A stretch of DNA of 64,000 nt from Strigamia acuminata (lineage: Eukaryota). The stretch lies in the NCBI GenBank assembly GCA_949358305.1, contig OX442314.1:6882001-6946000 (forward strand). Reading direction: 5' to 3'. Position numbers and translations under genes: made by a program. The notes below the pieces were generated by a model. That model was not told where the DNA came from. It did not search any database and saw only the letters and a list, made by a program, of their open reading frames with translations. Shown in pieces: positions 1 to 34,822 of this stretch (its first letter is position 1; each line of letters begins with the position of its first letter).

Positions 1-1
1 T

Positions 2-10266: not shown

Positions 10267-10771
10267 ATGAAGTGCATAATCATCCTCTTCTGTCTTGTCT
10301 CTGTTGGTAAGTTTAAACAAGAAAATATGTGAAGGCTTTTAGGAAATATTGGTGCTTCAAATTGCTGCCAGAGTGCACCACTACTGCACAATTTATTTTG
10401 TAACTGCCGTGACCGTACTTTTTTTACCCAAATCCAAAAACAAAATATACAGGCTTGTGTAGAATTTAATTTTACACAAAATGAGCCTGGTTTCAGAATT
10501 TTTAAAACCTTTCTAAGTGTCAAAAACAACGAAAAAAAATCTTCACATGCTGTCACACTGAGTCTGCTCTAAATGAGCAGTTCATGTTTCTGCCACTGGC
10601 AGCTGGAGCAGTCTACTTTTCCTGGGGGAAATTTTTAGTAAACTTAAAGCAAATTTAGTTTTATAATCTACACTGCCTATTAAATACTTGGCATAATAAT
10701 TAGATTAAGTTCACTAAAAATCTACTAAGAGTCGCCCTTGAATGGTAGCCACAGCTGAAACACCAAGAATA

Positions 10772-10977
10772 CCGTACTTTTGCAAAAGTATGGCATTGTT
10801 TCTGTATAAAACCTAATGAACGATGAACGTACGCTTCATTCGTGACGTTCAGACATTGTTTGTTTCACAAATGTAAACAAATGTAACAAATGTAACAAAC
10901 AAAAAACCGAAATTGTCATTGCTGTTAAAAATAGCAGTTTTGAATAAGAGCCGCGGCTCTTAATCGATAAAATACGG
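10772..10977. mobile_element. CCGTA-ended Tc1/mariner-type MITE remnant
   Basis: TA-ccgta ... tacgg-TA termini; internal TIR match poor. Confidence 0.45.
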
Positions 10978-11037
10978 TATTTCATAGAACTACAAAATAG
11001 TCAAAGCACAACCTACACCGGTGCCTACTGGACCGAC

Positions 11038-11214
11038 CAGTGGCGAAGCTAAAAGGCGGGGAGCCGAGCCGCCCTGGGCGTCATTCGGAAAGGGGTTACA
11101 CCCGTATAGGGATGACACCCAGCCAGGATTGAAAAGAATGTTGATTTTTACTGTTTTCGAGGGTGACACCATCGATATCCGCCCCAAGTGTCACCCGTGC
11201 TAGCTTCGCCACTG
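11038..11214. mobile_element. hAT-like MITE inside gene 2 exon 2
   Basis: Perfect 14-bp TIR cagtggcgaagcta / tagcttcgccactg; 8-bp TSD ggaccgac / ggacagac (one mismatch). Confidence 0.85.
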
Positions 11215-11384
11215 GGACAGACGTCAGGGCCAAGTGATGTGTAATTTTAAAAACAAAAGGATGGATTTAGTTCACACAGCAAAGTAAATGCGAACAGAGT
11301 TAACTGCAAGACACGTTTCATTAACATGTTATACCTTAATAGATATAATCTTTTAACCTCAAAAATATCACTTTGCAAGGTCAA

Positions 11385-11995
11385 AAACATATGCATTTTT
11401 GACCAATACGATGCATTTTTGACCAAAAACATGCATTTTTGACCAAAAACATGCATTTTTGACACGTTTCATTAACATGTTATACCTTAATAGATATAAT
11501 CTTTTAACCTCAAAAATATCACTTTGCAAGGTCAAAAACATATGCATTTTTGACCAATACGATGCATTTTTGACCAAAAACATGCATTTTTGACCAAAAA
11601 CATGCATTTTTGACCAAAAACATGCATTTTTGACCAAAAACATGCATTTTTGACCAAAAACATGCATTTTTGACCAAAAACATGCATTTTTGACCAAAAA
11701 CATGCATTTTTGACCAAAAACATGCATTTTTGACCAAAAACATGCATTTTGACCAAAAACATGCATTTTTTGACCAATAACATGCATTTCTGACCAAAAA
11801 CATGCATTTCTGACCAAAAACATGCATTTCTGACCAAAAACATGCATTTTTGACGAAAAACATGCATTTTTGACGAAAAACATGCATTTTTGACCAAAAA
11901 CATGCATTTTTGACCAAAAGCATGCATTTTTTACTAAAAACATGCATTTTTAACTAAAAACATGCATTTGAACCAAAAAAATATATTTTAACCAA
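11385..11995. repeat. 20-bp intronic minisatellite (tgaccaaaaacatgcatttt)n with a local ~150-bp duplication
   Basis: Direct tandem copies; no spacers. Confidence 0.95.
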
Positions 11996-12301
11996 AAACA
12001 TTGTTATTTTATAAAATAGAATTTTGCTTTTGATTTAATCATAAATATGGATAACATGGACAAATGGACACATATTGTACTGCCTCGTATAAACGCTACA
12101 CCCCTATGAAACCTGACGTTTATTCGGGACTGGCGATAGTGTGAAAAATCACCAATTTCTTTCAAAAATCACTGATTTTTTCAGAAAAAATCAGTGATGT
12201 TTTAAAATCCCGGCGCTTATTTTGGGTCGGCACTTATTGATATAATTATTAAGTAATTAAGACAAAATCAGTTTTAATGTATACTAATATTAAAACAAAA
12301 G

Positions 12302-12662
12302 GGCCAGAACTAGGAGGAAAAGGAGCAGCAGCAGAAGCAGGGGCAGGAGCAGAAGCAGAAGGAACAGAACCAGGAGGAGCAGAAGCAAGAGGAGCAGAAG
12401 CAGGAGGAGCAGAAGCAGGAGGAGCAGAAGCAGGAGCAGGAGCAGAAGCAGGAGGAGGGGGAGGAGGAGCAGCAGGAGGAGGGGGAGGAACAGCAGCAGC
12501 AGCAGCAGCAGGAGCAGGAGCAGGAGCAGCAGCAGCAGGAGCAGCAGCAGCAGGAGCAGGAGCAGGAGCAGGAGCAGCAGGAGGAGGAGCAGGAGCAGCA
12601 GGAGGAGGAGCAGGGGCAGGAGCAGCAGCAGCAGCAGCAGCAGGAGCAGGAGCAGGAGCAGC

Positions 12663-12697
<35 letters not shown>

Positions 12698-13026
12698 CAG
12701 GAGGAGGAGCAGCAGCAGCAGGAGGAGGAGCAGGGGCAGGAGCAGGAGCAGCAGGAGCAGGAGCAGGAAAAGGAGCAGGAGCAGGAGGAGAAGCAGGAAA
12801 AGGAGCAGGAGCAGGAGCAGGAGGAGCTGCAGCAGCAGCAGGAGGAGGAGCTGGAGCAGGAGCAGGAGGAGCAGGAGCAGGAGCTGGAAAAGGAGCAGGA
12901 GGAGAAGCAGGAAAAGGGGCAGGAACTGGAGCAGGAAAAGGAGCAGGAGCAGGAGCTGGAGCAGGAGCAGGAGCAGGAAAGAGAGTAGGAGCAGGAAAAA
13001 GAGCAGGAGTAGGAGCGGGTGCAGGT

Positions 13027-13059
<33 letters not shown>

Positions 13060-13149
13060 AGAGCAAGAGCAGCAGCAGGAGCAGGAGCAAGAGCAGCAGC
13101 AAGAGCAGCAGCAAGAAGAGGAGCAGGAGAAGCAAGAGCAGCAGGATAA
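12302..13149 (+). CDS. Gly/Ala-rich exon of gene 2 (GGA/GCA codon repeats)
   Basis: Phase-1 acceptor aaaacaaaag at 12301, homologous to those at 16455, 32675 and 50745; open until TAA 13147. Confidence 0.6.
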
Positions 13150-14371
13150 AGAGCAGGAGCAGAAGGAGCAGGAGAAAGAGCAGGAGGAAGAGCAGTAGAA
13201 AGAGCAGGAAGAAGAGCAGGCGAAAGAGCAGGAGGAGGAGCAGGAGGAGGAGGAGGAGCAGGAGCAGGAGGAGGAGGAGTCAAACCATCTGTAAGGCCAG
13301 CACAAAAAAACAACTACGATTACCACTACAACTACAGGACCACCACCTACAGAGCCGCCTCCTGAACAAACTGCAGAACCCATTTCTACACAGACTTCAG
13401 TGCTAGGTGAAGTGTAATATTAAGACAACAACTTAATAAAAGTATGAATTTAGTTTTCACAGCAAAGTGAAGGTCAACAAAGTAATGCACGTTTCATTAA
13501 CATGTCATGCAGTACAGATAGTTGTAGTAACAGCTGTACAACACGTTAATGAAATGTTTTATCTAACCAGTCATAGTTTGAAAATCTCTGTATAATAGCT
13601 TTAGTTTCAAATAAAATTTTAATTAGTTACACAGTAATTACATTTTCAAAATAGCCAGGTTTCTCTGTCTCACCCTGTATTATCCCTTCTCAATTTCCCC
13701 ATGTTGCATATCGGTAAGTTGTTTAGAACGAACACAGCAATTGTATCATCTCCTCCTTTAGAGAGGCTTGTCAGTGGAGCAAGTTAATTGGCAATACACT
13801 GGTGTCCTTCTAGTTGTGTTTACCTGTAATGAAACACTTTTTGCTATCCCTTTTAAATTGACATTGTACACCTATGGACAAAAAAATCTTCACATGCTGC
13901 CACGCTGCTTCAGCTCCAAATGAGCAGTTCATTTTTCTACCACCGGCGGCTGGAGCAATCTACTTTTCTGGGGGCAACAGAAAGTTTAAATGCGACTAAC
14001 AGTGAGATATTTAGTGAACTTAAAGCAAATTTAGTTTTATAATCCAATTATTACGTATTAAATAAACAGTTTTTTCTTTTATCCATATTTGATTGGTTTA
14101 TTTCTACAAAAATAAATTTAGAGAATAAAACTGGAAATGTAAACAAATTTGAGAAAAAATATAATTTAATATTTTTTGGGCAAAAAACACCATTTTTAGG
14201 CCATAAAAACAATTTAAAACACACACAACCACCATCACCACCAACACCATAGGATCTTAAAATTGACTGAAAAACAGGTTGAAACACAAAATAAAGACAG
14301 CACTAAATGTAAAATAATAGTATTTGCAATTCGATGTACAGTGGAGACAAAAACTAAGTTAACAAACGCAT

Positions 14372-15725: not shown

Positions 15726-16913
15726 ATGAAGTGTATAATCATCCTGTTCGGTCTTGTCTCTGTTGGTAAGTTAAAAGGAATAGTTTTTTGGCTCAAAAAA
15801 TCATGTTTAGGCCAAAAGAAATTATTTTAGTCCAAAAAGAATTATTTTAGGATAAAAAAATTCATTTTAATTTGTTGTTTTATGAGAAAAAATTCTGCTT
15901 TTGGTTTAATTTTTTTTATCAAACCTATTTTTCCAAACAGTAAAACCAGACTTATTTTGTGCATTTGGAAAATCACCAATTTCTTACAAAAATCACCAAT
16001 TTCTTTCAAAAATCACAAATTTCTTTAAAAAATCACCAATTTCTTTCAAAAATCACCAATTTCTTTCAAAAATCACCAATTTCTTTCAAAAATCACCAAT
16101 TTCTTTCAAAAATTACCAATTTCTTTCAAAAATCACCAATTTCTTTCAAATATCACCAATTTCTTTCAATAATCACCAATTTCTTTCAAAAATCACCAAT
16201 TTCTTTCAAAAATCACCAATTTCTTTCAAAAATCACCAATTTCTTTCAAAAATCACCAATTTCTTTCAAAAATCACCAATTTCTTTCAAAAATCACCAAT
16301 TTCTTTTAAAAATCACCAATTTCTTTCAAAAATCAGTGATTTTTTAAAATCCCGGCACTTAATTGGGGCCGGCACTTATAATTATTATAATAATTATAAT
16401 TATTAAGTAATTAAGACAAAATCACTTTTAATGTATACTAATATAAAAACAAAAGGGCCAGAACTAGGAGGAAGAGGAGCAGCAGCAGAAGCAGGGGCAG
16501 GAACAGAAACAGGAGGAGCAGAAGCAGGAGGAGCAGAAGCAGGAGGAGGAGCAGCAGCAGCAGGAGGAGGAACAGGAGCAGGAGGAGCAGGAGCAGGAGC
16601 AGGAGCAGGAGGAGAAGCAGGAAAAGGAGCAGGAGGAGGAGCAGGAACAGGAGCAGGAACAGGAGCAGGAACAGGAGCAGGAACAGGAGCAGGAAAAGGA
16701 GCAGGAAAAAGAGCAGGAAAAGGAGCAGGAGCAAGAGCAGGAGCTGGAGCAGGAGCAGGAGCAGGAAAAAGAGCAGGAGTAGGAGCAGGAGCAGGAGCAG
16801 GTGCAGGAGCAGGAGCAGGAGCAGGAACAGGAGCAGGAGCACACCACCACCATAACCACCATAACCACCAACAACACAACCACCATCACCACCAACACCA
16901 CAGGATCTTATAA
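15726..16913 (+). pseudogene. Gene 3: internally deleted paralog
   Basis: Signal exon 15726..15765; defensin exon starts at 15941 (VKPDLFCAFG) and breaks into a minisatellite; Gly-Ala exon from 16456 fused out of frame to terminal-exon sequence, giving a His-rich end and TAA at 16913. Confidence 0.7.
15969..16334. repeat. 20-bp minisatellite (aaaatcaccaatttctttca)n
   Basis: About 18 tandem copies; an unexpanded version is near 12145. Confidence 0.95.
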
Positions 16914-20434: not shown

Positions 20435-20536
20435 TTTAAAATTAATGGCTTTATAGATTCTTACGCCTTTTGTTCAATCAACCGTTATTGGCTATAAAAC
20501 AACCAGAAATTAACAAGAGTCCAGTATCCTTGAAAA
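20435..20536 (+). promoter_or_regulatory. Core promoter of cluster gene 4
   Basis: Conserved block; TATAAAA at 20493. Confidence 0.65.
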
Positions 20537-23500
20537 ATGAGATGTATAATCATCCTGTTCGGTCTTGTCTCTGTTGGTAAGTTAAAAAAAATACTTTTTT
20601 GGCTAAAAAAATCATGTTTAGGCCAAAACAAATTATTTTAGTCCAAAAACAATTATTTTAAGACAAAAAAATTCATTTTAATTTGTTGTTTTGTGAGAAA
20701 AAATTCTGCTTTTGGTTCAATTTTTTTTATCAAACCTATTTTTCCAAACAGTAAAGCCGGACATATTATGTGCATTTGGACGATGTGACTCTCACTGCAG
20801 AAAACAAGGAAATAAAGTTGGAAATTGTGCTAGTAAACGCGCATCTTGTGTTTGCACAGGTAAGGAGTAAAAACTAAAAATTTCTATAAAATTAGGATTA
20901 TGACATATCCTACATTAACCATGTTTACATGTACTGTACGTACAAGTAGTTATCTGGATGAATGAAAATTAGAATTTTACTTTTCTGGAAAACTGATTGT
21001 GTAAACGAAACAGTTTCCGGAACACAGTAGGTGCATTCAAAGTCAAATGAATTATTTTACTTATCATAATCTGAATTATCAACAATTCATGCAAGTCATT
21101 GGCTGATGTGGCTGAAATGTTTTATCAGCCACAGGAAATGATGTAATTTACATCAGTGAAATGATAATTTAATTCCAATAAGTGGCTTATTAATAAGTCA
21201 CTCCACGGTTATCCGGATAAATAAAATCTGGATTTTTAACTTGCTTTTCTGGAAAACTGTGTACATGTAAAAATGGTAACTGTCACCTCAATCAGCTGTT
21301 TGTACATATGTATATCAATTTTTATTATTTCTTATAACTATGAAATAGACAAATCACAACCACCACCGCCACCGCCTCCAGGATCAGGTAAAGTGTAATT
21401 TTTAGATAGAAACTTGAACAAAAGGATGAATTTAGTTTGGACAGCAAAGTGAATGTGAACAAAGTTTCCCGCAAGATGCTTCATTAATGTGTTATATCTA
21501 AAGATATAATATTTTTGCCCAAAAAAATCATTTTTGTATTAAAAAAACCACTTTTTAAGACCAAAAATATTCATTATAAGGTCTAAAACATGCAATTTTA
21601 ACCAAAAACATGCATTTTTAACCAAAAACATGCATTTTTAACCAAAAACATGCATTTTTAACCAAAAACATGCATTTTTAACCAAAAACATGCATTTTTA
21701 ACCAAAAACATGCATTTTTAACCAAAAACATGCATTTTTAACCAAAAACATGCATTTTTAACCAAAAACATGCATTTTTAACCAAAAACATGCATTTTTA
21801 ACCAAAAACATGCATTTTTAACCAAAAACATGCATTTTTAACCAAAAACATGCATTTTTAACCAAAAACATGCATTTTTAACCAAAAACATGCATTTTTA
21901 ACCAAAAACATGCATTTTTAACCAAAAACATTCACTTTGTTTTGTTGTTTTATAAAATAAAATTTTGATTTTTATTTAATCATGAACGAAGGATAACTGT
22001 GGACACGTACTGGTATCCACATGCTCATGTTATCCTTGGTTCATGGTTTAATCCATATCCTAATCTATTTTTTTTCCAAGCAGTGAAGCTTAACCAGAAG
22101 TGTAAAGTGGGTCAACAACCATGTGACCAATACTGCAAAATAAGAGTTGGTGCAGACAGAACTGGAAATTGCACGACACAGGGATGTATTTGCTTGCGTA
22201 AGGAGTAGAAACTAAGAATTTCTATAAAATTAGGATTATGACGTATCCTACATTAACCATGTTTACATGTACTGTACCTAGTTATCTGGATGAATGAAAA
22301 TTAGAATTTTACTTTTCTGGAAAACTAATTGTGTAAACGAAAGAGTTTCCAGAACACAATGACACTTTGTAAATTTCCAGCAAGGAAAGAACACTCACGT
22401 GATGTACGAGTTCGAATTTCGGAGTCGGGGTCGGATTTTGTCAAGTTTAGTTCATGTTGTCGCGGAGCAAAAAGCAAACGTGTGTTAACAGGTTAAACTT
22501 TATTTGCACAGTAAAGAAACTGGGTTTTTACAAAAGGTAATTGGTTTCTAAGAAAAAAGGGGTTGGGGTATTCGAGTTCAGGGGTCAACGTTCGGGGATG
22601 CAAAAAGAAGAGTCACTCAGTGGTGACCAAAAGAACTAAGTAAAGAAAACAATACATCAAACAAATCAAATATCGCAAATAAATCAAACTAACAACAAAT
22701 ATAAATTGCACTTGCAGTTGAAATTTCACACTGCGCCCCGAAAGGGGGAAAAACAGTTCAAATTTATCTTCTGCTCACTCGTCTAACTCGAGGAGGCACA
22801 ATCGCTGAATTGGTCTTCGAATTATCTTTTGGTTGGTCGTCACTACTTCGGCAGAACGGATTTTTCCATCACGACCAACAAACACTTTTCTTACTCGTGC
22901 CATCTTCCACTGCATGCGAGGAGTGCAGAGTTCCTCGACGAGTACCATGTCGCCCTCCATCAATTCTCTCGAAGGCTTTTTTGTCTTGCGAAATTCACGA
23001 AGTTCTACGAGATATTCATGTTTCCACCGACGCCAAAAGAGTTGGACCAAATGTTGACGGTGTTTCCATCGTCCCACAAGCTCTTTTCTAGAAGTGTTTT
23101 CGAGTTCGAGTCGCTGTTGACGATGGTCCGGCAGAGCAATCATTCTTCTCGTCAATAAAAAATGCGCAGGCGTCAGCGGTGGTTTTTCTGATGGGTCGTC
23201 CGAAACGTAAGTGAGGGGACGCGAGTTTATGTTGGCTTCAATTCTTACTAGAGTTGAAAGTAATTGTTCGAAATTAAGGCTGGACTTTCCCAAAATTTTC
23301 TTTAAACTCAGCTTCACGGTTTTTACTAACCGCTCCCAAAACCCCCCCCACCAAGGGGCGAGCTCGACAATGTATCGCCAATCGATATTGTTGGTGGTGA
23401 GATGATTTTGAAACGGAGTTTGTATTATTGAGTCGTAGAGTAGTTTCAAATCTTTTTCGGCGCGCTTGAAAGTTTTCGCGTTGTCGGACATAATTATTCG

Positions 23501-26500
23501 GGGAAGTCCTCGACGTCCGGTGAACCTCGTAAAGGCGTCAATGAATGTCTCGCTGGTCAAATTTGATACCAGTTCGAGATGTACTCCTCTTGTAACGGCA
23601 CATGTAAAAAGTGCGACGTAACTCTTGCTGCCGTCCTTTAAAATCAATGGTCCCGCGAAATCCACTCCTGTTACCTCGAAGGGGTCACTTGGTTCGACAC
23701 GATCGTTTGGAAGTGGAGCTTCCATTTGAGTCATGGTTGGCTGCAGGACTTTACGACATGTGACGCAATGACGCAAAATCGATTTTATTTCTCTTCGGGC
23801 TTTGGGCATCCAAAATCGCGATCGAAATTCGGAAAGTGTGTCGCCCAGACCACCGTGGAGCGTCCGCAAATGGCAACCGTGGATGATCAGCTTCGAAAAG
23901 TTTGAGTTGGGATCAATAACGATTGGGAAATTGAAATCTTCTTCGTTTTTGACTGTTCGGATACGGCTGTTAATGCGTAGAACTCCATCAGTGTCGCAGA
24001 TGACGTTGACTTTCTTCAACATCGAGTCGGGGGGTACACGTCGATTTTCTTTGAGACAAATCTTTTCAGCGACAAAGCGGCAACTCTGCATGTTCAAAAT
24101 CAATCGTTTTTCGGCGTTTCTCATTTCTTGCGCGTTTAAATTTCCTTTGTATTTTTCTTGGTCTTCTGTCTTCGAGCGACAGTTGTGGAGGAAGCGCATC
24201 AAATAGGCGGTAACCCGTATCGCCTTAGTCCACGAGCTAAATCGATCTGGTTCGAGGAGCGTCTCGATTAGAAATATCGGGATTAAATTTATCGAGGTTG
24301 AGCTCGTAATTTCTTCGAGGTCGTTGAATTCGGATATTTCTTCAGCAGAAATATTATTTGGCCATTCTTCCGGTTCTTTGGTGAGCCAAGATGGTCCATT
24401 TATCCACTCTTCATCTTCTATTAATGTTTTGGCAGGAACCCCTCTGGTAAGTCTGTCCGCGGGATTGTCCTTGCCTGGCACATGGCGCCAGTCGTCCGTA
24501 TTCGTGTTTTCGATTATTTCGCGTACTCGATTGGTTACGAAGGGGTGTGACTTGCGTTGATGGTTGCGAATCCAGAAGTAAGTTATACTGGAATCGGTCC
24601 AATAAGTGGCAGAGTCAGTCGTCAAAAAGTTCAGTTTCTTCGCAATTCTCGACAACAGTAACGCCCCCATGAGTTCTAGTTTGGGTAGAGTTAATGTCTT
24701 TATGGGGGCTACTCTGGTTTTCACTAGGCACAGACGGGTCACCACTCGATCTTGGTAAACAGTTCGCAAATATACCACGACGCCGTATGCCTTTTTTGAG
24801 GCGTCGCAGAAAAAATGAAAATCGCGTCGAATTGGAGTCTCATCGGTGTCGCCTAAGTGACGAGGGATCGAAAAATGTCTCAAACTCGAAATTTGTGTCT
24901 GCCATTTCCTCCAGTCGTTTATCAAGTTGTCGGGGAGTATGACATCCCAATCGATTCCTAACTTCCAGAGTTCTTGCAGAAAAAACTTCCCAGTGATGGT
25001 GAACGGGGCAAGAAATCCTAACGGATCAAAAATCCTAGCAATTGTCTGTGTTACTTCTCGTTTCGTAGTTTTCGAAGTGGGAGGAATGTCGGCCCAATCA
25101 CCAATCTCAACTCTCAAAATGTCTTCAACAAAGTTCCAATGCAAACCCAAAACTGACGTTTCTTCCTTTTCGGGTTCTGTTGTCGCATCAGCGGGGTATT
25201 CTTTACGGAAAAGTTCACGAAGCTCGGGCGAATTGCTTTGCCATTTATGCAACATCAGGTGCGCGCGAGACATGATGACGCGTGATTCGGTGAATATTTT
25301 CAGCGCTTCGGCTAACGTTTTCAGGCTGTCGATCAAATCGTCGACGTAAAAACGTTCTTTCAATCTCAGTGCAGTAATTGGAAATTCATCGCTGGATCGG
25401 TCGAGGTGAATGATGATCGTCCCGTTGAGTAGATAAGGGCTGGAGGTGGCTCCAAACACTACACGTAATTGTCTCATTTTTCGAATTATTACCGGGTCCG
25501 TGCCATTCCAATCTGGTTGAACCCACAGAAATCGCACGTAATCGCAATCGGGTTGCGCAAGCAATATTTGAAGAAAAGCCTTCTCGATGTCCGAAAGTAG
25601 AGCGAAAAAGTTCCAACGGAAGAAAATCAACATTCTTACAATCTCAGGCAACAAATTCGGTCCCTTGTCGAGGCAATCATTGAGGGAGAGTTCTTTTTTC
25701 GCATTGGAAGAGGCGTCAAACACAATTCGGACTTTAGTGGTGGTTCGATTTTCCTTCACGACAGGTCGGTGTGGCATGTAATAACAATTCGGATTGTCGG
25801 GGTTTGAACACTCTTCAATGACGCCTTCTCGTAGCTGGTCATCGAATATTTTTTGGTACGCAATTCGTAGGCCGGGGTTTCGCTGTAGTCGACGGATCAG
25901 GTTCCAGAAACGGCGTTCGGCGATTCGATAATTGTTCGCCAATTGTTGTTTGTCGATTACCCACGGAAGGGCCACTTCATATCGTCCCTCACGTGTTGTG
26001 GTGGTGTCACGAAAGGCTTGGAGTCGGGTGTCGTTTTCGTCGCCGTCGTCGTTTAATGTCTCGTGTCTGATGCCGATTGATTCCAATTTCCAAAAATTTC
26101 GTAAGTAGTCATCGGTAGAAATGTTCTGGTGCTCACTAGTGGATACTTGAAGAGCTGGAGCAAATGCTGTGGCTACGGAGGTTATGTTGGGCGAAGAACC
26201 GAGCGGGATCCATCCAAAAATCGTTTCGAGTGCGCAAAGTCTTTTCTCTAATTTCATCGATTGTCCGGTCAGAATTTCGCCATAAAAGTCAGCACCTAAA
26301 AGGAGAAGAATTTCCACATTAATACTCGGTTCATTGAATTCAATTCCCCTTTGTTTCAGGCTGGCTCGTAAGCTCGCCGTCAACTCTAGAGATACAGGAT
26401 GGGTAATCTTTTCAGTCTCCAAAGCGTGGAGTTCGCATTTTTTAGATGCATCGTCACAATTCAAAATGGTCACGTTGTATTTGTGACGGACTGATATTTT

Positions 26501-29500
26501 GGGCTCGTCGTCGAATTTAGTAATTTGCACGACGGATTGTCCTCTCGATTCAAGTTCAAGCTCGAGCGCCAGTGAAGTCACAATGTATGATGAGGGACTT
26601 CCAGTGTCTAACAAACAGTTTATAATGCGTTCACGTCCACGATGAGCGACTTTCACGGTGAACACAGGCATTACCGCATTCTGCAGATGTACGGTTTCAA
26701 CCATATTTGCTGGAGTCAGTGTCGTAATCGGAGTCGGGTTTAAAGTCGGAGGCGGAGTATTTTTTGATAGCTCGATGGTCGCCAAATCGGTGTCACAAAC
26801 CAAAGTGTGGTGTCTTCTGTGGCACTTATCGCAAGTGGATCGAGCAGGACATTCACGAGCAACATGTCTCGTCTCAAGACATCTAAAGCAACGGCCATGA
26901 CTTTTGCACGCTGATTTTCGGTCGGCAATTGAGAGCGGGCATGCTTCCTTCTTGTGATCATTTTTGCTGCAGAAAAGGCAGCTGTCGATTCGTGCGGTGA
27001 GTGCGGAGGTTGTTGATTTCGGTGTAAACTGTCGCTTCTCGTTCGTCGTCTTTTTCGAGTCGAAATTAAATTTATTTGTCTTTTCCTCAGGCGCTCTACG
27101 TGCTGGTTGCGTCGATACGAGGTAAGAAGCGAACAGGTCGGGCTTTTCCTGTGTGAAAATCTCTTCACGAATTGAGTCTAACAGTTCGGTAATTGGAAAG
27201 ACGTGCACTCCTTTGCGCTCGCCCGTGTAACGGGTTACCCACTGGCGAGGCATCGTCGCAAGAATCATCGGGCTTACGGACTCGTTGAGTGACACCTCGG
27301 ACATCTCGGCTCCTCTCAGCCCTCGTACGTGGCTCTCGCTGTCGTCGTATATGCGTTTCAGGCCGGCGACGTCGTTGAGGTATTTTATCGGGGTGGCGCA
27401 ACGCAGGGCGGCCAAGTGCGCTTCACGGATGGCGTACACGTTCCCAAATCGTTCGGTAAGCAATGTTTTTGCACTCACATAATTTAAGTCCGTTACGGCA
27501 AGTCGTTTCACCACATTTCCCGCTTCTCCGGTCAGCATTCCTTTCAAATAGACGTGCTTGGTGGAGTCGTCCAAATTTGTGTTTTTGTCCACACTGGCCG
27601 AAAAATGTCCCCAAAACTCGTTCCAGTCCGTCGCTTTCCCATCAAATTTCATCGGGTCGATTTTCGGTAACTTCATGGTGAGATTGTTGGAACTCACGCT
27701 GCTTAAGGAGGTCGAACGGGATATTGTTGTGGGATTCAATTTGTCATCAATGGCGGTCAAACAATCAGTCACGCTCTCAAAATATTCCTCAGCCTGCACC
27801 ATGTCAGCATCCAATTCATCACCATCTGTCAACAACTCAAGAATTTTATTATCCAATTCTTTTAAGTCAGTTCTTTTTATTTCCAATTGGCTTTTGAGTT
27901 TTTTCAAAGCCAACATATTTATAGTAGCTTCTTTCAATTCTTTGTCTGCTTTGTCCACCGCTTTAGTGATGAACGTGCGCGTCGATCCACGTTGGCGTTT
28001 CAGCAAGGTCAAATCCGCCATTTTGGTTTATATTGTTCGTAAATTTTCGGTGATTAAAGGGTTTATGCGTAATTACGGTTTGATGAAGCGTTAATCGGTT
28101 TTCGGTCGTTTTTATCGTCGGTCGTGTATCGTCGGGTCGTGTAGTCGTCGTTGTATCGTCGGGGTTGCGTATCGTCGGGTCGAGTCGTCGTTTTCTCGTG
28201 GGCACCACGTGTCGAAGGTCGCGCCGGGACGGATTTCCCGGGTTTCGGCACCAAATGTAAATTTCCAGCAAGGAAAGAACACTCACGTGATGTACGAGTT
28301 CGAATTTCGGAGTCGGGGTCGGATTTTGTCAAGTTTAGTTCATGTTGTCGCGGAGCAAAAAGCAAACGTGTGTTAACAGGTTAAACTTTATTTGCACAGT
28401 AAAGAAACTGGGTTTTTACAAAAGGTAATTGGTTTCTAAGAAAAAAGGGGTTGGGGTATTCGAGTTCAGGGGTCAACGTTCGGGGATGCAAAAAGAAGAG
28501 TCACTCAGTGGTGACCAAAAGAACTAAGTAAAGAAAACAATACATCAAACAAATCAAATATCGCAAATAAATCAAACTAACAACAAATATAAATTGCACT
28601 TGCAGTTGAAATTTCACACACTTGTTACCAAAAATGATGTGAAATGAGCTAAAAACACGATTTCCAGGGTCAGAATTTGATCTGTTTAGGGGCTGAAATA
28701 CATCAATAACCATTTTGTTGTTCCAAATAATCAAAATGCATTATGGGTAATTCACATGTGGCGTCATGTTTACCAGAAAACTAGGGCGATGTAAACCGCA
28801 CACGGTTATCCGGATAAATAAAATCTGGATTTTTAACTTACTTCTCTGGAAAACTGTGTACATGTAAACATGGTAATTGTCACGTCAGTGCACTGTTTAT
28901 ACATTTTTACTATTTCTTATAACTACGGAATAGTCCAATCACAACTACCACCACCGCCGCCTCCAGAACCAGGTGAAGTGTAATTTTAAGATAGAAACTT
29001 GAACAAATGGATGAATTTAGTTTGCACAAAACACGTTTCATTAATGTGTTATATCTTAAGATTTTTCTCCTAAAAAATTATTTTTGTATTAAATACATCA
29101 CTTTTTAAGACCAAAAACATACATTTTCAGGTCAATAACATGCATTTTAACCAAAAACATGCATTTTAACCAAAAACATGCATTTTAATCAAAAACATGC
29201 ATTTTAACCAATAACATGCATTTTAACCAAAAACATGCATTTTAACCAAAAACGTGCATTTTAACCAAAAACATGCATTTTAACCTTCTCATAGCCATGG
29301 TGGGTCAAAAAATAACAAAAGTAGTAAAATAACTGTAACTCTTTTTTTCCTGAAAATTAATTTAGGGAACCAGCTTTAATTCCTCCAAAAATATTTTTTC
29401 TAAATTTATAATAACTAAGTTCTAATATTATTTCGATTAGGAATAAGATAAACTAATAATAAGAATAATATTTACAACATAAAACACCATTACGTGAGCG

Positions 29501-32500
29501 CCGTACACTGTTTTGCCACTTTTTAGCACTAGGCGGTGTATTGAAACGATTCTGCGCATGTGCACAATCTTACTTTTCCAGGTGCAATCGCATTTTTTCT
29601 GGTTTGAGCACATTAAAACATGTGCTGAGGCCAGGAAAAATGCAATTGCACCTGGAGAAATAAGATTCTGCACATGCGCAGAAGCATTTTAAAAGAAGGC
29701 CGATTTGACCGACCACAGCTAGCAATGGTGGAAATTAGGCTTGGCTATGGGAAGGTTAACCAAAAACGTGCATTTTAGCCAAAAACGTGCATTTTAACCA
29801 AAAACATGCATTTTAATCAAAAACATGCATTTTAACCAAAAACATGCATTTTAACCAAAAACATGCATTTTAACCAAAAACATGCATTTTAACCAAAAAC
29901 ATTCACTTTATTTTGTTGTTTTCTAAAATAAAATTTTGCTTTTTATTTAATCATGGACGAAGGATAACTATGGCCACGTACCGTACTGCCTCATATAAAC
30001 GCCGGGGCGTTTAATACTATTATCAGCTCGTCACTGGTGCTTATTTGTGCTCGGCAACTGTGCAAAACATCACCCATGTTTTTTAAAAAATCAGAGTATT
30101 TTAGGTGATTAGATAAGTTTTAGTGCACCCAGGCGCTTATTGATGGGCGCCGCTGACCCCTGGTGCTTAAACGGGTCCCGGCGCCTACTTTAACCCGGCG
30201 TTTATACGAGGAAATACGGTATCCACATGTTCCGAGCATTTTGCTGCAATGAATTAGAGGATGACCTCAAGTAACAAACATGCTTAGTTGGCATGCGAGG
30301 CATGTCACGTGACTGCTGTCATCCAATCAGCCACAGAACATCGAATCAATACGAAATAACTCGTGTCCATGTTAGCCTTGGTTCGTGGTTTAATCCATAT
30401 CCTAATCTATTTTTTTCCAAGCAGCGAAGCTTATCCAGAATTGTAAAGTGGGTAAACAACCATGTGACCAATACTGCAAAATAAGAGTTGGCGCAGACAG
30501 AACTGGAAATTGCACGACACAGGGATGTGTTTGCTTGCGTAAGGAGTAGAAACTAAGAATTTCTATAAAATTAGGATTATGACGTATCCTACATTAACCA
30601 TGTTTACATGTACTACCTAGTTATCTGGATAAATGAAAATGAGAATTTTACTTTTCTGGAAACCTGATTGTGTAAACGAAACAGTTTACAGAACACAATG
30701 ACACTTGGTACAAAAAATGATGTGAAATGAGCTAAAAATCGATTTCCAGAGTCAGAATTTGATTTGTTTAGGGGCTGAAATAGATCGACAACCATTTTGT
30801 TGTTCCAGATAATCAAAATGCATTATCGGTAATTCACATGTGGCGTCATATTTACCAGAAAACTATAGATATGTAAACCGCACACGGTTATCCGGATAAA
30901 TAAAATCTGAATCTTTAACTTACCTCTCTGGAAGACTGTGTACATTTAAACATGGTAATTGCCACGTCAGTGAGCTGTTTATACATATGTATATAAATTT
31001 TTACTATTTCTTATAACTACAAAATAGTCCAATCACAACTACCACCAACGCAGCCTCCAGAACCAGGTGAAGTGTAATTTTAAGATAGAAACTTGAACAT
31101 GTGAGAGTGGACGGGCACAGTTCGGGCACGGGAATGCCCAAACAGCGCCGGACGCACGACGCGTGAGGATGGAAGATACACAAGAGACTGAGCTTAATGG
31201 TTTATGGCCTTTATTCAGTGTCTAGGGGGTCAGTTCCTATGTCTCTCCCATTGCTACGCTGCATTGCTGCAGCATACCTGCGACCACACGCGGCACACAC
31301 GTGGTTAGCGTTCACCTGAGTGTGCGGCGTGGTCACGCCGATGTTCACTAAGCCCATGGTGATCGCTCACGGTACTGGGATTGACATGCCGGCCAAGTCC
31401 CTAAGTGTCACCATGGTGAACAAGAGTGGGGAGCGGTCTGATGTTGGTCAGAGCCACTCCTGGAGAACTCTGGCTACAAACAGGATGTTGGGCCTTTTAT
31501 AGCCCACTCCTGCACCATGGGTACGAGAGTACTTCTTCCCATTGGTTGTGGGGTTGGTGACCGGATATGACGTCATCCTGGTCACCATCCCTCAACCGTT
31601 AACGCCACCTGGCAGGTGTGGTTGGGCTGGGCCATGTGGAGTGTTGCAGTGGCCGATTATCGATCACAAACAAATGGATGAATTTAGTTTGCACAGCTAA
31701 GTGAATGCAAACAAAAGTTTACCGCAAGACACGTTTCATGAATGTGTTATATCTTAAGATTTTTGCCCTAAAAAATCATTTTTGTATTAAATACATCACT
31801 TTTTAAGACAAAAACATCCATTTTCAGGTCCATAACATGCATTTTAACCAAAAACATGTATTTTAACCAAAAACATGCATTTTAACCAAAAACATGCATT
31901 TTAACCAAAAACATTCACTTTATTTTGTTGTTTTCTAAAATAAAATTTTGCTTTTCATTTAATCATGAACGAAGGATAACTGTGGACACGTACTGGTATC
32001 CACATGCCCATGTTATCCTTGGTTCATGGTTTAATCCATATCCTAATCAATTTTTTTCTTAGCAGAAAAGCCAAACCTTAATTGTAAAGTGGGTAAACAA
32101 CCATGTGAAGAATACTGCAAAATAAGAGTTGGTGCAGACAGAATTCCAAATTGCACGACACAGGGATGTGTTTGCTTGAGTAAGGAGTAGAAACTAAGAA
32201 TTTTTATAAAATCTGGATAATTGGCAGCAATCAATTCCTTTTCATACAATCGGGGGCGTTGCTAAAAGTTCTAAACTCAAAAATATATGGGACCCTTTTA
32301 CCAGAAGAGGACTTACTGCTTTTCGTAGGGAAAGGACCCCATAGCGCGATTGAGTTGTACACTTTTATACCACTCTTGCATCATTTCACTTGCACCATTC
32401 CCATTAAATCTTGAAGATGCCGTCCGGGACGACAACTCTTCCTAGCATGATTAAGTAGTACTAAGCGCGCCATTTGAGAATCCTTGATCGGAAACCGGTG

Positions 32501-32716
32501 ACAGCAGTCTTGGTAATTGGGAATTTACATTATTGAAGCATAGGGATCAGGAGTCAAAAACTTTCAGCAAACCTGTCAAAAATGCTGGGGCTGTCACTGC
32601 TCCCACACCTTTTCTGTTAAGTAATTCAGACAAAATCAGTATTAATGTATACATATGTTAATGTCAAAACAAAAGAGGCGGATCCAGGAGGAAGAGCACC
32701 AGGAGCAAGAGCAGGG

Positions 32717-32754
<38 letters not shown>

Positions 32755-34822
32755 GGGAGCAGGAAAAGGAGCAGGAACAGGAGCAGGAAAAGGAGCAGGA
32801 GCAGGGGCAGGGGTAGGAGCAGGAGTCAAACCACCTATAAAGCCAGCACGAAAACCAACTACGACTAAGGCTACAGAGCCACCACCTACAGAACCACCTC
32901 CCGCAGAGACTTCACAGCCAGTTCCCGAACAGACTTCAGAGCCAAGTAAAGTGTAATATTAAGATAGCAACTGTTTGTGGTGTGTAGTCTTGTGCAATGC
33001 GGTTGGTATTGCAGAAGTAAACATTCTCCAGCATAAAAAAACGATTGTTATACTGGAAAAAATATGGCTTTAGGAATTGTAAATGTTCCAAAAATTCATG
33101 TGTAAATGTAAGCTTTACAGTTTTTGTAAAGTTGTTGTAAAATTGAATTGAAATTAGAAAATTAACATTGTTTTACACACTTCTTAAATTTCAGATGTAA
33201 ATTATTAGACATTTACATTAAATTTAAGATGCTTGTAAATGACTTGGAAAGTTAATGTATGGGTTTATCACCAGCTGGCGACATATTTCAAAAATAGAAA
33301 ACTAGAAAATTTATATTTGTTAAATATGGGGTTGGTTTCATCAAACTGCGTGCAGGCCCAGTTTAAAGCCATATTTTGTTTCCAGTGTTGTGTTTGCATT
33401 TATCATAAGAAATAGACATTAAGTATTTCTAAATTTGGCTTAGACCACTTGTCATGGGGATTCTTTTCGACCAGGAATAGTTACAACTTAAAGAAAAACA
33501 TCACTCCTTTCAACCAGAGTTGCAGGATATATCCTGGATTATTTCTGACTAGATCAAAAAATATTCTGGGGGGAAGGATTAATTGCCGGAACGATTTACG
33601 ATTTAAAGGATTACCGATCGAAAAGATTACAGGTCGAAAGGATTACCAGTCAATAGAATTATCAGTCGAAAGGATTACCGATCGAAAGGATTACCGGTCG
33701 AAAGGATTACCGGTTGAAAGAATTACCGGTCGAAAGGATTACCGGTTGAAAGGATTACCGGTCAAAAGGATTACCAGTCGAAAGGATTACCAGACGAAAG
33801 GATTACCGGACGAAAGGATTACCGGACGAAAGGATTACCGGTCAAAAGGATTACCGGCAGGGCTCTCTTAACATATTTTAGTGCTCTGGGCTAAAACATC
33901 AGGTGCTCCTTGTCCCTTGTAATTCTCTGTCAGAGGACAGTGATCTTCGGCACCTGACGCCCTTGGGCAGCAGCCCTTTTGCTTAACGGTTAAAGTGGCC
34001 CTCATTACTGGTCAAAAGGATGACTAATCGAAAGGGTTACCGATCAAAAAAATTACTAATCCGATCGAAATAAATCCAGGAATTTAACATTGTTTCCTCA
34101 ATGAGCAGTTTAAATTTTTTTTAATTTGATATATTTCTTGAAACAACAAAATAGCCCAAGCACAACCATCGCCTTCGCCTGCTGCAGAGGCAGTTTCCGG
34201 ACAGACTCCAGCTCCAGATGCTGGACAGACTCCAGCTCCAGATGCTGGACAAACTCCAGCTCCAGATGCTGGACAGACTCCAGCTCCAGATGCTGGACAG
34301 ACTCCAGCTCCAGATGCTGGACAGACTCCAGCTCCAGATGCTGGACAGACTCCAGCTCCAGATGCTGGACAGACTCCAGCTCCAGATGCTGGACAGACTC
34401 CAGCTCCAGATGCTGGACAGACTCCAGCTCCAGATGCTGGACAGACTCCAGCTCCAGACTCTGGACAGACTCCAGCTCCAGATCCCGGACAGACTCCAGG
34501 GCCAGGTGAAGTGTAATATTAAGACAGCAACTCAAAAGTGGGTTATTTTGTCGACGCCGTTTTGTTGACCTAAAAATTTGCAAAATAAAAAAATTCAATA
34601 CGTCTTGTTGACAAACCATACCCGTACGTCTTGTATACAATGGGCAAAATTAATATTCGAGCACAAAGAAGGGAATGATTCGGTCAACAAAAATCGGTTT
34701 AACCTCCTGATTTAATGTCACATTAATAGTAAGGTGTCTAGAATTATTTTTTTTGATATATTTCTTAAAACAACAAAATAGCCGACGCAGCAACACCAGA
34801 ACCAACATCAGCACCACCATAA
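20537..34822 (+). CDS. Gene 4: secreted protein with four defensin-like domains, Pro linkers, Gly-Ala and mucin-like tail, 422 aa
   Basis: join(20537..20576,20752..20859,21349..21387,22084..22197,28934..28972,30425..30538,31028..31066,32066..32179,32676..32945,34155..34505,34782..34822) = 1269 nt; all introns GT-AG phase 1; no internal stop; AATAAA at 34860. Confidence 0.78.
20752..20859 (+). CDS. Defensin-like exon, type A (gene 4)
   Basis: [36 protein letters not shown]; ccaaacag acceptor, gtaagg donor. Confidence 0.85.
21585..21930. repeat. 20-bp intronic minisatellite (accaaaaacatgcattttta)n
   Basis: About 17 near-identical tandem copies. Confidence 0.95.
22084..22197 (+). CDS. Defensin-like exon, type B1 (gene 4)
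   Basis: [38 protein letters not shown]; tandem acceptor aagcag. Confidence 0.85.
22775..28021 (-). CDS. BEL/Pao Gag-Pol polyprotein, 1748 aa, intact
   Basis: Triple Cys-His Gag knuckles, protease LLDTGS, RT FYVDD, RNase H FCDAS, integrase VDFAGP/SDNA/WGGFWER. Confidence 0.97.
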   Translation of the reverse strand: MADLTLLKRQRGSTRTFITKAVDKADKELKEATINMLALKKLKSQLEIKRTDLKELDNKILELLTDGDELDADMVQAEEYFESVTDCLTAIDDKLNPTTISRSTSLSSVSSNNLTMKLPKIDPMKFDGKATDWNEFWGHFSASVDKNTNLDDSTKHVYLKGMLTGEAGNVVKRLAVTDLNYVSAKTLLTERFGNVYAIREAHLAALRCATPIKYLNDVAGLKRIYDDSESHVRGLRGAEMSEVSLNESVSPMILATMPRQWVTRYTGERKGVHVFPITELLDSIREEIFTQEKPDLFASYLVSTQPARRAPEEKTNKFNFDSKKTTNEKRQFTPKSTTSALTARIDSCLFCSKNDHKKEACPLSIADRKSACKSHGRCFRCLETRHVARECPARSTCDKCHRRHHTLVCDTDLATIELSKNTPPPTLNPTPITTLTPANMVETVHLQNAVMPVFTVKVAHRGRERIINCLLDTGSPSSYIVTSLALELELESRGQSVVQITKFDDEPKISVRHKYNVTILNCDDASKKCELHALETEKITHPVSLELTASLRASLKQRGIEFNEPSINVEILLLLGADFYGEILTGQSMKLEKRLCALETIFGWIPLGSSPNITSVATAFAPALQVSTSEHQNISTDDYLRNFWKLESIGIRHETLNDDGDENDTRLQAFRDTTTTREGRYEVALPWVIDKQQLANNYRIAERRFWNLIRRLQRNPGLRIAYQKIFDDQLREGVIEECSNPDNPNCYYMPHRPVVKENRTTTKVRIVFDASSNAKKELSLNDCLDKGPNLLPEIVRMLIFFRWNFFALLSDIEKAFLQILLAQPDCDYVRFLWVQPDWNGTDPVIIRKMRQLRVVFGATSSPYLLNGTIIIHLDRSSDEFPITALRLKERFYVDDLIDSLKTLAEALKIFTESRVIMSRAHLMLHKWQSNSPELRELFRKEYPADATTEPEKEETSVLGLHWNFVEDILRVEIGDWADIPPTSKTTKREVTQTIARIFDPLGFLAPFTITGKFFLQELWKLGIDWDVILPDNLINDWRKWQTQISSLRHFSIPRHLGDTDETPIRRDFHFFCDASKKAYGVVVYLRTVYQDRVVTRLCLVKTRVAPIKTLTLPKLELMGALLLSRIAKKLNFLTTDSATYWTDSSITYFWIRNHQRKSHPFVTNRVREIIENTNTDDWRHVPGKDNPADRLTRGVPAKTLIEDEEWINGPSWLTKEPEEWPNNISAEEISEFNDLEEITSSTSINLIPIFLIETLLEPDRFSSWTKAIRVTAYLMRFLHNCRSKTEDQEKYKGNLNAQEMRNAEKRLILNMQSCRFVAEKICLKENRRVPPDSMLKKVNVICDTDGVLRINSRIRTVKNEEDFNFPIVIDPNSNFSKLIIHGCHLRTLHGGLGDTLSEFRSRFWMPKARREIKSILRHCVTCRKVLQPTMTQMEAPLPNDRVEPSDPFEVTGVDFAGPLILKDGSKSYVALFTCAVTRGVHLELVSNLTSETFIDAFTRFTGRRGLPRIIMSDNAKTFKRAEKDLKLLYDSIIQTPFQNHLTTNNIDWRYIVELAPWWGGFWERLVKTVKLSLKKILGKSSLNFEQLLSTLVRIEANINSRPLTYVSDDPSEKPPLTPAHFLLTRRMIALPDHRQQRLELENTSRKELVGRWKHRQHLVQLFWRRWKHEYLVELREFRKTKKPSRELMEGDMVLVEELCTPRMQWKMARVRKVFVGRDGKIRSAEVVTTNQKIIRRPIQRLCLLELDE
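28236..28253 (-). promoter_or_regulatory. Primer binding site, tRNA-Phe
   Basis: Plus strand TCCCGGGTTTCGGCACCA equals the 3' 18 nt of metazoan tRNA-Phe, 2 nt from the 5' LTR. Confidence 0.88.
29135..29900. repeat. 19-bp intronic minisatellite (aaccaaaaacatgcatttt)n, split by a MITE
   Basis: Tandem copies on both sides of 29284-29755. Confidence 0.9.
29284..29755. mobile_element. piggyBac-like MITE
   Basis: TTAA at 29280-29283 and 29756-29759; TIR ccttctcatagcc / ggctatgggaagg. Confidence 0.8.
29981..30219. mobile_element. Tc1/mariner-type (CCGTA-ended) MITE
   Basis: TIR ccgtactgcctcatataaacgccggg / cccggcgtttatacgaggaaatacgg; TA TSD. Confidence 0.82.
30425..30538 (+). CDS. Defensin-like exon, type B2 (gene 4)
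   Basis: [38 protein letters not shown]. Confidence 0.85.
31100..31668 (-). mobile_element. Solo LTR, 569 bp
   Basis: TGTGA..TCACA termini; 4-bp TSD AACA; absent from the paralogous intron near 29000; minus-strand TATAAAA near 31498 and AATAAA near 31212. Confidence 0.85.
32066..32179 (+). CDS. Defensin-like exon, type B3 (gene 4)
   Basis: [38 protein letters not shown]; the Gly of the conserved TG/IG-N-C motif is Pro here. Confidence 0.85.
33600..33858. repeat. 16-bp minisatellite (gattaccggtcgaaag)n, diverged copy
   Basis: Same unit and same intron position as 51237-51657. Confidence 0.9.
34155..34505 (+). CDS. Octapeptide-repeat exon (GQTPAPDA x12) of gene 4
   Basis: 24-bp repeat from 34199; 351 nt, phase 1-1; frame fixed by homology to the gene 5 exon 52593..53000. 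Confidence 0.75.

Follow-up and report, generated by a model that had tools for sequence, protein, structure and literature searches.

An intact 11-exon gene model predicted to encode four defensin-type heads on polyproline spacers, with an acidic low-complexity tail

Secreted proteins that carry several defensin-like domains in a row have been described in insects. X-tox proteins of Lepidoptera, such as Spod-11-tox and Gall-6-tox, combine several cationic CS-alpha-beta motifs, encoded by separate exons, in one secreted protein (PMC2728511, PMC4558851); the motifs number 3 to 11 and follow the consensus C-x4-C-x3-C-x7-G-x-C-x3-K/R-C-x-C, and the function of such a multi-defensin 'rosary' is, in the available part of that source, given as unknown by the X-tox authors (PMC2728511). 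In Nasonia vitripennis, nasonin-2 and nasonin-6 comprise four to five defensin-like domains and, in the portion of the description available, no protease processing signals; nasonin-6 has one exon per domain with phase-1 introns between them, an arrangement explained by exon duplication (PMC2853521). As far as the accessible text of these sources goes, multi-defensin proteins that give each domain its own exon and lack processing signals are already described. According to the part of the source available, single defensins of arthropods and molluscs share the pattern CX4-15CX2HCX6-9GX1CX4-9CX1C, and their genes have an unsplit mature exon preceded by a phase-1 intron (PMC6435467).

Here, we describe gene 4, one of six genes of a cluster located in the window (the whole stretch of DNA analyzed, 64,000 nucleotides), for which four such heads are predicted. 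What looks new in this gene is the use of proline mini-exons as spacers and the presence of an acidic tail of 220 residues. Within a scope that left subscription journals aside, the literature on multi-domain or tandem defensins yielded X-tox, the nasonins, MtDef5, AvBD11 and the Art v 1 group, none with the gene 4 architecture, and full texts of the same scope contained none of the peptide strings taken from head and repeat sequences.

The gene 4 model shares with X-tox, as far as the latter is described in the text available, tandem cationic motifs on separate exons, here of predicted CS-alpha-beta type, and spacers devoid of conserved cleavage sites. The X-tox consensus, in the form given there, is not matched, with x6 in the first loop of the B heads and x6 instead of x4 before CxC in head A, and the A head of the paralogous gene 5 matches it in spacing but has Ile at the K/R place. 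Unlike those of X-tox, the gene 4 spacers are conserved polyproline mini-exons, and the accessible X-tox descriptions mention no Gly-Ala or Pro/Thr tail of the kind found in gene 4. A search with a profile of the 8 heads of the window returned no X-tox, although at 38 positions this profile has little power. Compared by description only, and within the available part of that description, nasonin-2 and nasonin-6 lack the spacer exons and the long low-complexity tail of gene 4. BmKDfsin of Mesobuthus martensii resembles head A in its six-Cys CX2HC/GXC arrangement and in having an unsplit mature exon separated by a phase-1 intron from the signal-peptide exon, but genes of this type, as the accessible text presents them, consist of two exons, encode one domain and end after the defensin, whereas gene 4 has four head exons followed by more exons (PMC6435467). 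Among plant proteins, so far as the sources at hand describe them, Art v 1, Amb a 4 and Par h 1 join a defensin head to a proline-rich region, as gene 4 does, but have one head (PMC5771466), and MtDef5 likewise places two defensin domains on a short linker but has no tail (PMC5700942). The resemblance to these plant defensins is an analogy of design, not kinship.

The locus is confirmed as an intact 11-exon gene model. A preliminary description of this DNA had joined 11 exons into a frame of 422 residues, and rebuilding the model from the window reproduced it exactly (11 exons, 1269 nt, 422 codons plus stop), including the proposed domain order of signal peptide, A, linker, B1, linker, B2, linker, B3, Gly-Ala/Pro-Thr, GQTPAPDA repeats and a 13-residue tail. 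Every intron is GT..AG and in phase 1, and 20 of the 20 splice sites are intact. All features of the gene lie on the forward strand. A putative promoter box, GTTATTGGCTATAAA (20484..20498), made up of an inverted CCAAT plus TATA, stands 39 nt upstream of the ATG. Exon 1 (20537..20576) encodes the ATG and 13 hydrophobic residues, a predicted signal peptide, and ends in phase 1. Head A occupies exon 2 (20752..20859; 36 residues, 6 Cys, net charge +5) and is followed by linker 1 in exon 3 (21349..21387), head B1 in exon 4 (22084..22197; 38 residues, 6 Cys, net charge +4, with an N-C-T motif), linker 2 in exon 5 (28934..28972), head B2 in exon 6 (30425..30538), linker 3 in exon 7 (31028..31066) and head B3 in exon 8 (32066..32179); each linker is a 13-residue polyproline stretch and an exon of its own. 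Exon 9 (32676..32945; 90 residues) carries a Gly-Ala block (net +4) and then a Pro/Thr-rich stretch, exon 10 (34155..34505; 117 residues, net charge -13) the GQTPAPDA repeats, a 24-nt unit in 12.5 copies, and exon 11 (34782..34822) the last 13 residues and the stop, after which comes a conserved 3' region with AATAAA.

With at most one mismatch, the promoter-like box was found only at 6600, 10213, 15672, 20484, 49261 and 62097, and at each of these places a signal-peptide exon lies downstream. That gene 4 is one gene is supported by the stretch from 20.4 to 49.2 kb, which contains a single box, a single signal-peptide exon and a single stop/3'UTR exon; the B heads have neither a box nor a signal-peptide exon of their own. 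The acceptor assigned to exon 9, AAAAG|AG, is a probable one, with a poor pyrimidine tract and a second, competing AG 2 bases downstream; the latter was rejected because the shifted frame is closed by a stop in each of genes 4 and 5, and in both genes the Gly-Ala/Pro-Thr exon has one open frame only, the modeled one. The stop codon occupies the identical aligned place in genes 2, 4 and 5. Exon lengths across the family are shown to be under coding constraint: all 8 of the exon length differences among paralogues, versus 5 of 16 intron differences, are multiples of three (Fisher p=0.002). In the predicted product, the sole hydrophobic 19-residue window is at the N-terminus (top window, residues 4-22), in line with the earlier claim that the protein has no transmembrane segment.

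The heads are predicted to be invertebrate-type CS-alpha-beta defensin knobs with three disulfides. Six cysteines are invariant in all 8 heads of the window, the identity of which falls to 31%. Head A and the gene-6 A head fit the arthropod/mollusc pattern; the B heads fit its spacing, but Tyr replaces His, and the gene-5 A head has Gln at the same place. The four head exons of gene 4 are all unsplit and lie between phase-1 introns, as in the arthropod and mollusc defensin genes. AlphaFold models of heads B1 and A (pLDDT 80.9 and 81.5) each consist of a helix and two strands. Searched with Foldseek, head A found CS-alpha-beta proteins in all of the best 50 matches listed, none of them significant, and neither head A nor head B1 produced a significant match (E >=0.16; best 0.16 and 0.59); with VIA, CS-alpha-beta proteins accounted for 17 of the 17 matches of head B1, with Z no higher than 2.6. 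Taken over both programs, nearly all of the leading matches listed are CS-alpha-beta proteins.

The PDB profile search with the heads gave no significant match (E-value >=0.038), and the Pfam matches of the heads, at 13.9-21.6 bits, were all under the cut-offs. Specifically, Defensin_2 (PF01097; cut-off 20.4) scored 13.9 bits with head A and 15.4 bits with the gene-6 A head and left the B heads unmatched; the heads were below threshold for the CS-alpha-beta models SLR1-BP, Toxin_3, Defensin and Gamma-thionin; and macins (PF14865) reached 18.3-18.7 bits against a cut-off of 27, over profile positions 22-46 of 60 only. The nearest clusters in the ESM Atlas were scorpion short toxins at 0.84-0.88, which is under the 0.9 line and a lead only. 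Among 1.84 billion representatives, the 8-head profile, of little power at 38 positions, detected no true relative, and its sole match (P0001) was a false positive, a repeat protein of 1116 residues that has two Cys in each repeat and lacks the head Cys pattern. The word-indexed protein search with head B1 gave no candidate among longer or similar-length proteins, and the sole metagenome-contig match to the B-head alignment (L001) was rejected as an antisense frame of a long bacterial ORF. No protein or transcript relatives were found in the collections searched.

Our preferred reading, to which we assign a probability of about 0.5, is that this one intact gene would encode a secreted 'rosary' of defensin-type heads that are predicted to stay joined. 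The signal peptide would be followed by four cationic three-disulfide knobs, one exon per knob, held apart by the 13-residue polyproline spacers, and by a 220-residue tail composed of the Gly-Ala block, a mucin-like Pro/Thr stretch and 12 acidic GQTPAPDA repeats. The joined product would be an extracellular, multivalent binder of microbial or other surfaces, its tail serving as a spacer, charge mask or matrix anchor. We infer that the heads remain covalently joined because the linkers lack convertase sites: KK, KR, RK, RR and RxxR are absent from every linker, which bears out the earlier statement that dibasic sites are lacking. Tethering would fit this absence, the lack of a separate promoter-like box or signal-peptide exon for the B heads and the two insect precedents without processing signals.

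The distribution of charge, with +13 on the heads plus linkers and -11 on the C-terminal 220 residues, would fit an acidic, cleaved pro-region equally well as a stalk. Gene 4 might encode a polyprotein precursor, with post-translational cleavage at non-canonical sites separating the heads and the acidic C-terminal part neutralizing them until release. Gene 1, where a single head is likewise followed by a cationic-then-acidic tail, is consistent with such a precursor, and the precursors of some invertebrate antimicrobial peptides usually end in an acidic extension. However, the linkers have no dibasic or furin-type sites, and most endoproteases cleave polyproline poorly. Together with the available descriptions of X-tox (PMC2728511) and of nasonin-2 and nasonin-6 (PMC2853521), which report no processing signals or conserved cleavage sites, this makes the precursor reading decidedly improbable. 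As regards the tail itself, the 220 residues are predicted to be disordered and the Pro/Thr part to be mucin-like; O-glycosylation of that part is suggested by composition only, and the glycosylation of the stalk proposed earlier is a weak idea. The N-C-T sequon noted previously in B1-B3 is indeed present, at residues 91, 142 and 193, and is replaced by N-C-M in the gene-5 B head.

Because every internal exon is phase 1-1, any subset of heads stays in frame, so exon skipping could also yield isoforms with fewer heads. Taken further, the locus might be a generator of variants, a repertoire of cassette exons from which splicing picks subsets of heads and linkers, the main products having one or two heads. 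In an alignment of 164 bases, the intron after head A is 94.5% identical to the one after head B1, and the donors of the two are nearly alike, so that the splice signals look interchangeable; furthermore, alternative splicing reportedly generates the X-tox repertoire, to go by the title of a 2013 study by d'Alencon. Dedicated spacer exons, however, make most sense when neighboring heads are joined, and the A-linker-B order is retained in gene 5. We regard the cassette repertoire as an unlikely alternative.

Gene 5 (49315-59867) is a two-headed version, as previously proposed, and runs from a signal peptide through A, an 18-residue linker, B, Gly-Ala/Pro-Thr and a GQTPxPVP repeat to the tail; among the genes that follow the gene 4 plan, head number is one in gene 1, two in gene 5 and at least one in gene 6. 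Recent unequal crossing-over of head-plus-linker units would account for the number of heads. Introns included, identity among the duplicated units is 87-95%, and pN/pS among the B heads is ~1, which together indicate that the B copies are young and that their open frames alone are no sign of selection. Across the cluster, head exons diverge much faster than their own introns. Decay has affected two of the six, genes 2 and 3, with lesions that comprise a small inverted-ended insert with a stop in a linker exon, a broken Gly-Ala frame and satellite over head A, and turnover is therefore high; because these genes are decayed, head-less paralogues were rejected as a sign that the tail is the functional core.

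Gene 4 has itself received insertions. A BEL/Pao LTR retrotransposon (22368..28619, reverse strand) lies in intron 4, antisense to the gene, with an uninterrupted frame of 1750 codons, matches to Peptidase_A17, DUF1759, DUF5641 and an integrase zinc-binding domain, a pair of 364-nt LTRs with 100% identity, a target duplication of 4-5 bp and best relatives in arachnids at 37-43% identity; it is young and might disturb the expression of gene 4. A solo LTR (31100..31668, no strand assigned) with TG..CA ends in intron 7 is flanked by an AACA target duplication when compared with three empty paralogous sites, and its region has high word depth in DNA runs. That the frame stays open across the 6.2-kb BEL insertion and the solo LTR, as the preliminary description noted, is true, yet trivially so, because both sit in introns.

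A search for sequencing runs with this region listed no RNA run; two runs (X1 and X2, one study), which we treat as DNA because they cover introns, provided contigs from it. At the four diagnostic sites of B1, the sole contig placed there from the two runs has the letters of B2, and the presence of four heads may be peculiar to a single haplotype. Contigs of X1 and X2 on 29950-32650 have 0 differing letters in the pieces listed, and none spans exon 6; a backward joint in them, from 31961 to 29950, is explained by a paralogous satellite flank. One contig per run connects 22361 with 28618 and lacks the BEL element, but these contigs were rejected as proof of an empty allele, since their shorter side is only 30 letters long and the B2 unit is similar.

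Gene 4 might also be a silent or dying copy, unexpressed or disabled by the BEL element, with a frame that survives only through recent duplication. The pN/pS of ~1, the decay of the adjoining genes 2 and 3, the identical BEL LTRs and the absence of B1-specific letters from the run contigs placed there would fit such a copy. Conversely, the promoter-like box, the 20 splice sites, the stop and the 3' region are all intact, the exon lengths of the family are held to multiples of three, and the BEL element is intronic and antisense; a silent copy is, in our judgment, improbable.

If the heads of gene 4 do stay joined, it would be a third and apparently independent case, lending weight to joined defensin folds as a recurrent solution, with parts that can be tested separately, namely, the rigid polyproline spacers and the separable acidic tail. 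Natural paralogues with one, two and four heads stand side by side and offer a direct test of valency. Exon-unit duplication, fast divergence of heads and gene decay within 64 kb make the cluster a compact example of turnover in an immune-effector or toxin family. More speculatively, and rather unlikely as a whole, an invertebrate that is neither a moth nor a wasp may have built a defensin rosary independently on a fused silk- or mucin-like stalk, so that arrays of antimicrobial or toxin-fold knobs would be immobilized in secreted material, for example mucus, silk, cement or egg coat, with the number of heads (1, 2 or 4 in the cluster) tuned, and perhaps kept polymorphic, by unequal crossing-over of head-plus-spacer exon units.

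The 11-exon model that the preliminary description had proposed for gene 4, the gene under study, was rebuilt exactly from the window: it runs from 20537 to 34822 on the plus strand, with 1269 nt of coding sequence (422 codons and a stop), and all 10 introns are bounded by GT and AG and lie in phase 1. The claimed domain order was likewise recovered, and the observation as a whole is confirmed. A signal-peptide exon and head A are followed by linker 1, B1, linker 2, B2, linker 3 and B3 (13 residues per linker), an exon of 90 residues that is first Gly-Ala and then Pro/Thr, an exon of 117 residues with GQTPAPDA repeats (a 24-nt unit in 12.5 copies), and a C-terminal tail of 13 residues. In a six-frame scan of the window, the cysteine pattern CxxxC...CxC of the heads marked eight short exon-like frames, every one on the plus strand (6895, 20769, 22101, 30442, 32083, 49509, 50163 and 63187).

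The window holds six paralogous signal-peptide exons, with ATGs at 6654, 10267, 15726, 20537, 49315 and 62150, and 39 nt upstream of each lies a conserved 15-nt box, GTTATTGG(C/T)TATAAA, that combines an inverted CCAAT with a TATA motif (6600, 10213, 15672, 20484, 49261 and 62097). Across the 64 kb, only those six sites match the box with at most one mismatch; two mismatches give 25 matches, the other 19 being satellite or scattered sites. Tail exons with conserved 3' flanks are found at four places (approximately 14.2, 16.9, 34.8 and 59.8 kb). Given these positions, the stretch from 20.4 to 49.2 kb contains one start and one end, and neither a signal-peptide exon nor a box that would give B1, B2 or B3 a start of its own was found in the 64-kb window. 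A splicing repertoire, in which the gene yields products with fewer heads, is favored by the symmetry of every gene 4 exon, and we regard it as possible but rather unlikely. When the donor of a head is read through, a stop follows at the third or fourth codon past the last full codon of the exon in all eight heads (...GKE-stop, ...RKE-stop or ...RKN-stop; for example, at 20860-20870 and 22198-22208), so that intron retention would end the protein directly after that head.

The other members of the cluster repeat this plan to varying extents. Gene 5 (49315-59867) is the two-headed version that had been described, in which an 18-residue linker joins heads A and B, and a Gly-Ala/Pro-Thr exon and a GQTPxPVP repeat exon lead to a tail whose end, ...APP-stop, it shares with gene 4. 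The three exons of gene 1, which is intact, encode a signal peptide, a single B-like head with 47% identity to B1, and an Ala/Pro/Lys tail of 54 residues that becomes acidic at its end; gene 6 leaves the window after its signal peptide, head A and linker. Two copies are decayed: in gene 2 (10267-14260), a small insert with inverted ends has brought a stop into the linker exon and the frame of the approximately 1.1-kb Gly-Ala exon is broken, and in gene 3 (15726-16913), a satellite (tandem repeat) overwrites head A after ten residues and the Gly-Ala exon is fused to a His-rich reading of the tail.

The units of B1, B2 and B3 have arisen by recent duplication, with flanks that are 87-95% identical, and the very few changes among the B heads give a pN/pS of about 1, so that the open frames of these units alone prove little. 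The gene family as a whole does show coding constraint. Where paralogous exons differ in length (8 cases, in heads A, linkers, the Gly-Ala/Pro-Thr exon, the beginning of the repeat exon and the tail), they do so by a multiple of three every time, as against 5 of 16 indels in the paralogous introns that separate a head from its linker (Fisher p=0.002); in gene 4 as in gene 5, the Gly-Ala/Pro-Thr exon has a single open frame, the one described previously; genes 2, 4 and 5 stop at the same aligned place; and the six cysteines are invariant in all eight heads, at identities to B1 as low as 31%. That gene 4 is a silent young copy is, in our estimate, quite unlikely. The introns downstream of heads A and B1 (20860-21030 and 22198-22370) are identical at 155 of 164 positions (94.5%) and the head exons at only 63 of 102 (~62%); either the head exons have changed far more rapidly than the sequence around them, or the flanks have been homogenized between units.

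Two sequencing runs of one study, X1 and X2, behave as DNA, and the number of heads may differ between haplotypes or individuals. Over 29950-32650 (B2, linker 3 and B3), the listed pieces show no differing letters, and none spans the B2 exon. At the four diagnostic sites of B1 (22084-22113), the only contig covering them carries the B2 letters; the X1 word depth in the B2 exon bin is about 206, roughly twice the single-copy level of 91-97; and in each run one contig connects 22361 directly with 28618, leaving out the intervening BEL element. The B2 letters at B1 and the BEL-less contigs could represent a haplotype that lacks the B1 unit or BEL, or could reflect cross-mapping of the B2 unit.

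The surrounding sequence is AT-rich, transposon-packed animal DNA, with Gypsy elements at 1-3676 and ~35.9-46.7 kb. The BEL/Pao retrotransposon within gene 4 (22368-28619, minus strand) is very young: its frame runs through 1750 codons without interruption, its two 364-nt LTRs show 100% identity, the target duplication measures 4-5 bp, and its empty site is seen in the paralogous B2 unit. Its polyprotein has its best relatives in arachnids (pseudoscorpion, spiders and ticks), but these share only 37-43% identity with it and fish and insects follow closely, which makes this a weak hint as to the host. A MULE/Ulp1 element (53621-56964, minus strand) occupies part of the long last intron of gene 5, with a MULE transposase, a SWIM finger and an Ulp1-type protease in adjoining frames. 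A satellite of 19-20 nt, AAAACATGCATTTTTAACCA, forms arrays in the intron that precedes each B head, as part of the duplicated unit, and also in gene 2 (21585-21931, 29110-29285, 29756-29910, 31834-31922 and 11368-11950). Each unit also carries, in its head-to-linker intron, a short, high-copy MITE-like repeat (30769-30859 and 28632-28870) with a word depth in the DNA runs of ~100-200 times single copy. In genes 4 and 5, a conserved 16-nt tandem array, AAAGGATTACCGGTCG, occupies the corresponding intron (33605-33857 and 51237-51660).

The classification of the heads as defensin-type is based on their pattern and gene structure rather than on statistics. Head A matches the published invertebrate defensin pattern CX4-15CX2HCX6-9GX1CX4-9CX1C and is organized as the defensin genes of arthropods and molluscs are described to be, with a signal-peptide exon, a phase-1 intron and an unsplit mature exon (PMC6435467); the B heads conform to the defensin spacing and carry Tyr where the pattern has His. 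In AlphaFold models computed from an alignment of the eight head sequences, a helix precedes two strands (pLDDT 80.9 for B1 and 81.5 for A). Among the Foldseek matches listed for head A, 50 of 50 are CS-alpha-beta proteins (defensins of plants, insects, fungi and nematodes, and scorpion toxins), and this fold accounts for most top Foldseek rows and 17 of 17 VIA rows for B1. None of these matches is significant in Foldseek (best E-values 0.16 and 0.59) or, for B1, in VIA (Z at most 2.6); all Pfam matches of the heads fall below their cut-offs, and a PDB profile search yielded only E-values of at least 0.038, with CS-alpha-beta proteins in five of six rows. Such weak statistics are expected for domains of only 36-38 residues. 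No relative was found by word-indexed protein searches with head B1, by an exhaustive head profile search of 1.84 billion representatives (its single match was rejected as a false positive) or by a metagenome scan with the heads (a single locus was rejected as spurious), and peptide strings of gene 4 had no match in literature full text.

Proteins that join several defensin-type domains are already known. The X-tox proteins of Lepidoptera are described as secreted, with 3 to 11 CS-alpha-beta motifs, spacers without conserved cleavage sites and no conversion to active defensins (PMC2728511), and their motifs are reported to occupy separate exons (PMC4558851, citing d'Alencon 2013). Nasonins 2 and 6 of Nasonia are described with 4-5 defensin-like domains and no processing signals, nasonin-6 having one exon per domain with phase-1 introns between, explained by exon duplication (PMC2853521); in plants, the Art v 1 group carries a defensin head on a proline-rich region, and MtDef5 is a two-domain defensin. 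Compared with these systems as described, gene 4 is set apart by conserved polyproline spacers that form exons of their own, by the 220-residue Gly-Ala/Pro-Thr/acidic-repeat tail and by two head types in fixed order, A then B. It has no detectable kinship with the insect families (X-tox and nasonins), and because its heads fail the X-tox motif consensus, it is not filed as X-tox.

The linkers lack dibasic sites (KK, KR, RK or RR), as had been claimed, and also RxxR; the product has three dibasic pairs, located within head A and the Pro/Thr stretch. Heads and linkers of the gene model together have a net charge of +13 (+2 to +5 for single heads), and the C-terminal 220 residues one of -11 (Gly-Ala part +4, repeats -13, tail -2). 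The product might be a precursor with an acidic pro-region, which we consider quite unlikely. The N-terminus is the only hydrophobic segment, and thus the absence of a membrane anchor or GPI-like end holds. An N-C-T sequon is indeed present in B1, B2 and B3, but the B head of gene 5 has N-C-M, and the sequon is therefore not a family feature.

The reading offered in the preliminary description, of tethered heads acting as a multivalent binder on a glycosylated stalk, is plausible from the sequence, and, as far as can be inferred, the gene 4 product would work like X-tox. With a probability of about one half, we propose that it is a secreted rosary acting as a multivalent binder, in which stiff polyproline spacers would keep four cationic knobs, each locked by disulfides, a few nanometres from one another, with a disordered, acidic and probably O-glycosylated tail behind them that may serve as a spacer, charge mask or matrix anchor.
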